From contig JBHLLO010000004.1 in assembly GCA_048885535.1 (NCBI GenBank), forward strand, positions 1 through 61,625: a stretch of 61,625 nucleotides of DNA, written 5' to 3'. The DNA comes from Candidatus Hermodarchaeota archaeon. Lineage in GTDB: Archaea; Asgardarchaeota; Lokiarchaeia; Sigyniarchaeales; SOKP01. A program made the position numbers and the translations under genes. Positions 29,742-31,078 of this stretch are shown one piece after another (the stretch's first letter is position 1; every line of letters begins with the position of its first letter). The notes under the pieces are model-generated. The model did no database searches. It saw nothing but the letters and a program-made list of their open reading frames with translations, and was not told where the DNA came from.

Positions 29742-31078
29742 AATATTTCTGAATCTAAAACGATAGTATCCTCTCTTTGAGGTCCTATAGAAATCATAGC
29801 TATATTTGCTTGTAATTCTTCTTTAATCGCTTGAATGTACTTTTTCATATTAGAGGGTAATGAATTATATCCCTTTTTTGCGATTTCTGACCATTCTTCC
29901 CTTGATCTTTCATTCCAACCATCGTATTCTTTATAGATTGGTGTGCATTTTTCAATAATTTCATGATGAATTGGCCAACTATCCAAAATATCTCCATTCA
30001 ATTTATATCCTACACACATTTTAATTGGACTTATTCCTTCTAGGGCATCAAGAAGAGTAATTATTACTTTATCTATTCCATTTATCACCATTCCATATTT
30101 TATATTAAAGAGATCAATCCAGCCTACTCTTCTTGGTCGTCCTGTTACAGTTCCATATTCTTTTCCTTGTTCCCGTATTTTATCAGCAATTTTATCCATT
30201 AACTCTGTTGGAAATTTACCTTCTCCTACTCTTGAAGTATATGCTTTAATTATCCCGTAGATCTTGCCTATTTTTTTGGGGGGAACACCTGAACCTACGC
30301 TAATTCCTAAAGCATTAGCATTTGATGAGGTACCATAGGGATACATACCATGATCTATTCCTAGCAAATTCCCTTGAGCTCCTTCAAAAAGAACTTTCCT
30401 CCCAGCATCAATCTCTTTATTAAGATAATAAGCTGTATCAACTACATAAGGTTTTAGTTGTTTGCCATAAGCTTTATATTCTTCATAAATCTTGTTAACA
30501 TCCATATCCCAACTTGGGTCATAAATATTAATCAATGCTTTTTTTATATTAAAAAGTTTTTCTAATTTAGGTTTTAATATATCTGGATTAATCAAGTCAA
30601 ATATTCTTATACCCCATCGAGCTGCTTTATCAGCGTAAGCTGGACCGATCCCCCTTTTAGTGGTTCCAGCGCTATATTCACCTTTTCTTTTTTCCTCTAA
30701 ATCATCCAATACATTATGGAAAGGGAAGATAACATGAGCAGTTGAACTTAACTTCAGGTTAACATTCTTATTCAATTTTTTTAAATTTTCTATCTCCTCT
30801 AATAGTACTCTCGGATCAACAACAACACCGTTTCCAATTATATTTTCTTTTTCTAATGGTGCCCCAGATGGCATCAATTTGAATTTATACTTGATTCCAT
30901 CAGCAACAATAGTATGCCCCGCGTTATTACCACCATTATATCTAACAACGATATCAGATTTCTGAGCTAAGAAGTCGACGAACTTTCCTTTTCCTTCATA
31001 TAGAGTTAAGTGCGTTTTGCATCATTAATCTCCCCAACTTAGCCCAATAACAGCAATTGTATTTAGTTTATTGTCCAT
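29738..31078 (-). CDS. purA: Adenylosuccinate synthetase, split by a 30-nt insert (exon 1 31078..31030, exon 2 30999..29738; 436 aa if spliced)
   Basis: Removing 30 nt gives [39 protein letters not shown]..; downstream [31 protein letters not shown] all intact. Confidence 0.93.
31000..31029 (-). other. Candidate bulge-helix-bulge (archaeal-type) mRNA intron in purA
   Basis: Sense AUUAAUGAUGCAAAACGCACUUAACUCUAU; in-frame UAA UGA; central helix GGGG/CUCU, AG^A bulge and AU^A 3' site, intron stem UUAA/UUAA + UGC/GCA. Confidence 0.75.

Follow-up and report, generated by a model that had tools for sequence, protein, structure and literature searches.

The window analysed in this study is a stretch of 61,625 nt from a Candidatus Hermodarchaeota archaeon (contig JBHLLO010000004.1), the close relatives of which are Promethearchaeota, i.e., Asgard archaea. 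On its minus strand lies purA, the gene for adenylosuccinate synthetase (AdSS), which begins ATG ... AGT TGG GGA GAT and then, after an insert of exactly 30 nt (TAA TGA TGC AAA ACG CAC TTA ACT CTA TAT, in the frame as read), continues with GAA GGA AAA GGA AAG in an open frame of 419 codons that runs without interruption to the stop. The P-loop, WGDEGKGK, is contiguous only once the 30 nt are removed from purA, and the two parts together then comprise 437 codons with the stop, giving a protein of 436 aa. The match to the Pfam model PF00709 (AdSS) extends over positions 1-416 of 416 (E 7.1e-156), its sole defects being one TAA and one TGA. We consider it very likely that the insert represents a bulge-helix-bulge (BHB) intron in the purA pre-mRNA, which would be removed by the tRNA-splicing endonuclease EndA and the ligase RtcB. 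The features of the locus are as follows:

31078..29738, minus strand: purA, comprising exon 1, the predicted 30-nt intron and exon 2, with the stop codon at 29738-29740
31078..31030 (49 nt), minus strand: exon 1, comprising the ATG, 16 codons and base 1 (G) of an Asp codon
31029..31000 (30 nt), minus strand: predicted BHB-type intron in the canonical register (cut after bulge base 2), with in-frame TAA and TGA
30999..29738 (1262 nt), minus strand: exon 2, comprising bases 2-3 of the Asp codon, then 419 further codons from EGKGK onwards, and the stop

In the window's purA, WGDEGK is restored by excision of 30 nt in any of three registers, which are equivalent because of a short A/T repeat. A first-pass annotation, made from the letters alone, had described just such an insert, with two in-frame stops splitting WGD|EGKGK, in an otherwise undamaged gene of 436 aa and with three equivalent registers, and the sequence reads as described; its suggestion of an Asgard-like host also agrees with the relatives named above. 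The first in-frame start 3' of the break lies 40 codons downstream. No copy of the insert was found beyond the purA locus in this genome by regular expression and blastn-short searches; it is not a repeated element there. Rfam 15 gave no match at E <= 1 in 30700..31300, and the insert, which is only 30 nt long, did not prove to be a member of the group I, group II or any other RNA family catalogued in that release. Three candidate exon 2 translations had no exact match in a public gene-call collection.

Structure of the insert and position of the predicted cut sites

A BHB motif consists of a 4-bp helix with two bulges of 3 nt, one on each strand (preprint 10.64898/2026.10.13.758758; PMC6379350), and in the cbf5 literature cleavage is placed after the second bulge residue and before the third (PMC2738675). 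The corresponding elements predicted in the purA transcript are:

31035..31032, minus strand: H1, the strand of the central 4-bp helix H that lies in the exon (GGGG, within the Trp and Gly codons), with 97.5% of cells paired over 30 variants
31031..31029, minus strand: 5' bulge A-G-A, predicted cut 31030|31029
31028..31006, minus strand: intron hairpin h', with UUAA/UUAA, the pair G31023-C31010 and UGC/GCA around an AAAAC loop
31005..31002, minus strand: H2, the strand of the same helix that lies in the intron (CUCU), pairing with GGGG through two G-C and two G-U pairs
31001..30999, minus strand: 3' bulge A-U-A, predicted cut 31000|30999

All pairings which had been claimed from the window alone (GGGG/CUCU, the bulges AGA and AUA, the UUAA/UUAA stem and the UGC-AAAAC-GCA hairpin) are thus present, and the recurrence of the same layout in a set of 30 distinct intron sequence variants (MAFFT alignment A2) indicates that the geometry goes beyond chance. 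Each of the 30 can be parsed as exon GGGG, AGN, a hairpin of 23-25 nt, four nucleotides pairing with GGGG, A(U/A/G)A and exon YGARG. The H2 strand is CCCU in 22 variants, ACCU in three, CCCC and CUUU in two each and CUCU in one, that of the window. The introns measure 30 nt in 10 variants, 31 nt in 18 and 32 nt in two, and 20 of the 30 are therefore frameshifting and not translatable by readthrough.

For each variant all pairs of cut positions that restore W-G-D-E-G-K were enumerated. The canonical cut, between bulge residues 2 and 3, does so in all 30, as the first-pass annotation had proposed for the window, and it is the sole register to do so in 17. At the canonical junction the Asp codon, the product of which we take to be catalytic in AdSS, is split, with one base coming from exon 1 and two from exon 2. 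The frameshifting lengths together with this split codon mean that readthrough, recoding or hopping cannot yield PurA and that excision at nucleotide precision is required; the BHB rule predicts precisely the excision which is needed.

The stated structure is also borne out by the substitutions within the alignment, in which 86.8% of cells are paired compared to 27-50% when the partners are slid by 1-3 columns. Every one of the nine pairs of the hairpin h' has changes on its two sides when the family as a whole is compared, while helix H, whose exon strand is constrained by the coding sequence, varies by G-C/G-U alone. RNAalifold independently recovered H, the 3-nt 5' bulge and h'. When the BHB fold was enforced it lay a median of 2.0 kcal/mol above the minimum free energy, and within 2 kcal/mol of it in 21 of the 30 variants. 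The first bulge base is a synonymous site of the Gly codon, which is GGA in 34 of 34 intron-bearing loci as opposed to 34 of 102 intronless ones. The covariation score of 0.233, against a shuffled mean of 0.108, was reached by none of 500 shuffles, although such statistics overstate independence because the sequences are related.

This last point is one of several that count against a BHB intron. The central helix has all four pairs in 27 of the 30 variants but only three of four in the remaining three, and the 5' bulge is enlarged in the two 32-nt variants. The window's own central helix contains two G-U pairs, and the ensemble probability of the H pairs is only 0.05; compared with the window's BHB, a competing helix (GGAG:CUCU, with a bulge of 1 nt) is favoured by 3.3 kcal/mol, and the 81-nt region as a whole folds no better than its shuffles (z = +1.43). 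The genus shows one change from G-C to G-U and no double compensatory change, and the exon-exon helix h is essentially absent from it. Since helix h is missing, the motif in the window's genus is relaxed rather than canonical; several variants of the second genus (see below) have an additional helix of approximately 6-7 bp formed by the exons, which makes their hBHBh' nearly complete. The window's copy fits the relaxed HBh' class (class names as in PMC6379350), and it is the weakest BHB of the set.

A further possible pairing was noted on the minus strand, between the exon sequence GGGCUAAG (31045-31038) and the 3' half of the intron, CUUAACUC (31010-31003), at seven of eight positions. As a decoy helix in competition with the BHB it was discarded, for the same exon sequence is found in a genus the intron of which cannot pair with it; the match may be a coincidence.

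Selection on purA and its insert

The purA described here is the only match to the gene in its own genome (3.09 Mb in 112 contigs, 91.6% complete). Over the 36 pairs of the nine intron-bearing species of the genus, the ratio of nonsynonymous to synonymous substitution rates (dN/dS) is 0.057-0.239, and synonymous sites are near saturation between their subclades, with a proportion of synonymous differences (pS) of 0.56-0.72. No second, intact purA with this copy under relaxed selection, which the first-pass annotation had named as a counter-indication, is therefore apparent. The third position is variable in 71% of purA codons, and the longest run of invariant third positions in the 437 codons is eight, codons 11-18, which bracket the intron. 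Six of the nine intron-bearing species share 95% identity over the intron and its flanks, and the exon 1 peptide is kept in all nine. Judged by these patterns of substitution, purA is under purifying selection and so, at the nucleotide level, is the insert.

Three observations concern purA copies elsewhere in the family. One genome has, besides purA, a second and weak PF00709 match, in two pieces within one open frame of 352 aa (G042:C75:16978-17853), and another, G107, has two full-length purA copies (on C26 and C55). In G077 (L166, G077:C73:2700-4100, minus) purA lacks model positions 45-116 with a change of frame; this gap looks like a deletion or a misassembly, not a short intron.

Distribution and history of the insert

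The survey covered 135 genomes of one Promethearchaeota family, of which 121 had a purA match and 117 a match covering the P-loop; G003, G108, G009 and G024, without the N-terminal region, were left out of the assessable set, and G043, G073 and G086 were scored as intronless from hidden Markov model (HMM) coordinates alone. In 30 of the 117 the same site holds an insert of 30, 31 or 32 nt. The alignment of related purA genes suggested in the first-pass annotation has hence turned up variable inserts which keep the BHB pairing, and their presence in assemblies of other species and in metagenome contigs shows that the insert is genomic, as had been supposed.

In the window's genus, 9 of the 42 species genomes (G000, G010, G013, G018, G019, G021, G045, G047 and G054) have a purA match which is 30 nt longer and contains internal stops, the position of the insert being identical in all nine. 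In a second genus, 18 genomes have a purA match that begins at model position 9-10, and inserts were seen there on reading the loci; in a third genus the match contains a stop in two genomes, again with same-site inserts, and one genome of a fourth genus has an insert in the P-loop of purA. Among 15 metagenome purA loci, four carry the P-loop insert. None was found in the 16 matched genomes from the three other families of the order, 13 of which were read directly.

The nine intron-bearers of the window's genus form one clade with two deep subclades (support of 93 in the Shimodaira-Hasegawa-like approximate likelihood ratio test, SH-aLRT) and require one change on a quick IQ-TREE phylogeny of exon 2 proteins with 48 rows. 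Across the family, the 28 intron-bearing rows require eight changes on a FastTree phylogeny of 125 rows (without G081 and without G100, a partial gene), but this is a tree of the purA gene and not of the species, so that losses, regains and recombination are not separable on it. The second genus stands out as especially patchy. Its introns and those of the window's genus have the sequence UUA(A/G)...UGC-A..(U)C-GCA...UAAC in common, which makes loss after an old gain likely; the hairpins of the third genus and of the 32-nt form are quite different.

Splicing machinery of the host

An EndA/RtcB route, proposed in the first-pass annotation from general knowledge of archaea, fits the gene content of the genome. 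There are two genes with an EndA domain, of 200 and 205 aa, at L035:1456-2055 and L036:1426-2040, both on the minus strand. All three residues of the catalytic triad (Tyr, His and Lys) are kept in the 200-aa protein, and its best matches are the PDB chains 3p1z_B and 3ajv_B (E 3e-35), presumably the subunit with catalytic activity in the Aeropyrum pernix heterotetramer; the 205-aa protein is without the His and its match is weaker. Two such paralogues are consistent with an (alpha-beta)2 enzyme. The triad of EndA is described in PMC6379350, and hetero-oligomeric enzymes cut relaxed motifs, that of the cbf5 pre-mRNA included (PMC6379350; PMC2738675); a broad specificity is given in the literature for the (alpha-beta)2 EndA of Asgard archaea. 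RtcB is intact, with a match over positions 1-426 and no stops.

Aragorn predicted introns in 23 of 34 tRNA genes, and those which were cleanly fitted at the canonical site are 18-32 nt long with a 4-bp H and 3-nt bulges. Many of the predicted introns have odd positions or lengths, which suggests multi-intron genes misread by the program; a tRNA-SeC was called on contig C73, and the genome has a GC content of 30%.

Proposed mechanism and alternative explanations

In the proposed mechanism the transcript would fold such that the exon GGGG pairs with the intron CUCU to form the 4-bp helix H, with the hairpin h' stacked on one side of it and the two 3-nt bulges, AGA and AUA, exposed. EndA, most likely as an (alpha-beta)2 enzyme, would cut after the second base of each bulge, and RtcB would then join the exons to ...UGG GGA G|AU GAA GGA..., restoring the P-loop W-G-D-E-G-K-G-K of AdSS and releasing the 30-nt intron, probably as a circle. 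What the data show is the motif, its conservation and covariation, the agreement of the canonical cut positions with the junction that is needed, purifying selection on purA and genes for both enzymes; cleavage and ligation of the purA transcript are themselves inferred. Removal of the insert from the mRNA by splicing of some precise kind is, on this evidence, nearly certain.

It is not likely, although it deserves consideration, that the insert is removed from the RNA by other means, whether another pair of endonuclease and ligase or a small self-cleaving element. The sequence data do not identify the acting enzyme, the BHB is not the most stable fold in the window's genome, and the GC-ANNUC-GC core which is conserved in many of the hairpins could be a protein-binding site. 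However, in all 30 purA variants the junction that is needed falls at the cut positions canonical for EndA, in six of six variants of a second gene, metG (see below), that rule also selects the register in which H has the most pairs, and both EndA and RtcB are encoded in the genome; for a ribozyme of a known kind 30 nt is too short, and Rfam offered no match at E <= 1. Translational bypassing, in which an unspliced mRNA would be translated with the ribosome passing over the insert, is less probable still. Ribosomes hop in this manner on gene 60 of phage T4, and a nearby stop and a hairpin in the gap, both of which are found here (the stop soon after the break in many variants), are typical of the known bypass sites. 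Against this, the Asp codon is split between bases 1 and 2, and in 17 of the 30 variants GAY is recreated only by a join at nucleotide resolution; there are no matching take-off and landing codons, as bypass sites are generally defined, that would give WGDEGK, and a hop from GGA to the next GGN would remove the invariant D-E.

That purA is instead a decaying pseudogene, or a split gene with a working large fragment, carrying a neutral insertion in a cell which obtains its purines through salvage, would account for a gene that is untranslatable as written and for the next in-frame start 40 codons past the break; with a genome 91.6% complete, a second copy could also lie on the missing DNA. We nevertheless hold this to be very improbable. 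The dN/dS of 0.06-0.24 over nine species with saturated synonymous sites speaks against decay, as does the conservation of both the 17-codon exon 1 and the intron, and an intact second purA was listed in none of the 30 intron-bearing genomes. A fragment starting past the break would be without the P-loop Asp, a residue which is essential in the AdSS of Escherichia coli. An error of assembly or sequencing could be suspected with a source as fragmented as this one (112 contigs), yet it can scarcely be credited when independent assemblies of 30 species and four metagenome contigs have an insert at the same site, the sequences of which differ while remaining structurally equivalent.

Further putative introns in metG and purA

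Outside the window, the single methionyl-tRNA synthetase (MetRS) gene of the same genome, metG, contains a frameshifting insert of 32 nt (C81:9733-9764, equal to L207:1473-1504, plus strand) between WPYVNA and PHLGN, the HIGH-type active-site motif. Its layout comprises H1 ACGC, a bulge AG|A, a 10-bp hairpin, H2 GUGA (three of four pairs) and a bulge AA|U, and the canonical cut would yield VNAVPHLGN. The insert is present in 6 of 121 matched genomes, namely this one and G010, G018, G067, G068 and G070, three being from the window's subclade and three from the third genus. Each of the six variants has one register with the most H pairs (3-4 of 4), and with the canonical cut at that register the product reads VNA(V/I)PHLGN, as in the intronless consensus; in some of the genomes the remaining registers would put Lys, Asp, Asn or Leu there instead. 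One further MetRS match, G137:C148:1718-2914 (L246), has a single internal TAA, with the N-terminal P-loop-like motif continuous.

A second site exists within purA itself. The gene of G081 (L165, G081:C126:25300-26770, plus) has, in addition to a 31-nt insert in the P-loop, another of 31 nt between ...GGU CAU and ACG GUU... (motif NAGH|T), for which a single register is allowed; H is GGUC:GGCU with four pairs, and the bulges AU|U and AA|A are at the canonical distances. Insert sites so far are the P-loop and the NAGH|T motif of purA and the HIGH-type motif of metG.

The metG hairpins of the third genus (L242-L244; G068, G070 and G067) resemble the purA hairpins of the second genus, with the shared form UUAG...GC-A..UC-GC...CUAA, and the alignment scores between them, 12-14, were reached by 0-2 of 2000 hairpin-preserving shuffles. 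Such likeness hints that the introns are related, and they may have moved from one gene to another, by reverse splicing for instance, with precise losses afterwards. It is conceivable, if somewhat doubtful, that the inserts represent a small family of mobile mini-introns, hairpins of 30-32 nt with an adaptable 4-nt 'guide' strand, which settle in codons for signature motifs, catalytic or nucleotide-binding, of essential genes of Promethearchaeota.

Searches for further cases were made in several ways. A de novo scan of the genome for a strict BHB that would join two open frames returned 3509 candidates compared to 3453-3536 with slid partners, with no excess under 10 further filters; the scan is uninformative because it is noisy and blind to relaxed motifs such as that of the genome's own metG, with its three of four H pairs. 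When the genome was compared with 781,645 nt of contigs from four relatives, mid-gene insertions of 12-150 nt amounted to three rows (two loci) in one direction and none in the other, the two loci being low-identity cases of fusion or splitting which were rejected as introns. A scan for N-terminal breaks gave seven candidates from 643 gene pairs and two from 475, one of which, metG, is real. The sensitivity of the comparative screen is low because small exons give no high-scoring segment pair, and with one new case in 643 pairs by a partly blind method, the genome may hold several such mRNA introns. Lastly, a hairpin-motif pattern run over the 135 genomes produced 25 matches against seven for the reversed control; eight are purA introns, and the other 17 were set aside (two in-frame coding, three of one conserved hairpin after a stop and 12 without supporting open frames), so that this pattern revealed no new intron in those genomes. 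At C13:49607-49681 and C50:14969-15040, two adjacent genes of this genome correspond to single frames of 811 aa in three relatives (28-51% identity), which looks like a fusion/split difference among paralogues; there are no BHB features.

Significance and relation to known systems

The mechanism is of a known kind, that of cbf5, while the genes and the lineage appear to be unreported. According to a paper from 2020 (PMC7714728), only one BHB intron had been reported within the coding region of an mRNA, in cbf5, and the paper itself adds a case in a 5' untranslated region (UTR); later reviews and structure papers cite the same three cbf5 papers. In full-text literature (subscription journals and supplements not being covered) no report was found of BHB introns in purA, metG or any protein-coding gene of Asgard archaea.

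The present data would add two essential genes and about 30 species to the protein-coding introns of archaea, with enough comparative strength to fix the splice sites at single-nucleotide resolution, and would place a protein-only, spliceosome-free form of mRNA splicing in the archaeal lineage closest to eukaryotes. The action of EndA and RtcB on mRNA, the gain and loss of introns and their possible mobility become open to test. Gene callers would report such essential genes as truncated or missing, thus distorting the metabolism deduced from Asgard metagenome-assembled genomes (MAGs), for example as an apparent purine auxotrophy or a missing N-terminus of MetRS. Ligation by RtcB needs GTP, and the expression of purA, which encodes a GTP-consuming step toward AMP, might therefore be coupled to GTP supply and to the capacity for RNA splicing.

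The closest parallel is the intron in the cbf5 pre-mRNA of Crenarchaeota (Watanabe 2002; Yoshinari 2006; Yokobori 2009, PMC2738675), likewise a short intron inside a coding sequence which leaves the gene untranslatable unless spliced. The cbf5 motif is often an unconventional BHB, cut by a hetero-oligomeric EndA between bulge residues 2 and 3, and its boundary falls between letters 1 and 2 of a catalytic Asp codon, the purA junction G|AY being of the same kind. Both introns are patchily distributed, a pattern read in cbf5 as gain followed by secondary losses. The purA and metG introns differ from that of cbf5 in gene and in phylum (Promethearchaeota/Asgard rather than Crenarchaeota), and in purA the length is almost fixed at 30-32 nt; moreover, cDNA and cleavage in vitro demonstrated the splicing of cbf5, whereas the purA intron is predicted here from DNA. 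The genome's own cbf5 is uninterrupted.

With the BHB introns of archaeal tRNAs the purA insert shares the motif, presumably the enzymes and a similar size range (18-32 nt in the tRNAs of this genome). In contrast to them the substrate would be an mRNA, in which recognition could draw on no tRNA body; the window's genus also has a weak exon helix h. Asgard tRNA genes are heavily interrupted by BHB introns (preprint 10.64898/2026.10.13.758758); in the main text of that preprint 'mRNA' does not occur and 'protein-coding' occurs once, for neighbouring genes. An EndA substrate outside tRNA and rRNA, likewise with a BHB intron, is the HVO_1309 mRNA of Haloferax volcanii, but there the element lies in the 5' UTR and not, as in purA, in the reading frame (PMC7714728).

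In eukaryotes, the HAC1/XBP1 mRNAs are cleaved by IRE1 and then joined by RtcB or a tRNA ligase. The EndA of H. volcanii is a homodimer, a type differing from that predicted for the present genome. Transposons are removed from animal mRNAs by 'SOS splicing' (PMC12779559). HAC1/XBP1 and SOS splicing employ other endonucleases and motifs and have regulatory or defensive roles, and no homology is claimed; as would be the case for purA, they are independent of the spliceosome, an endonuclease reads a paired structure in the mRNA and a tRNA-type ligase joins the exons.

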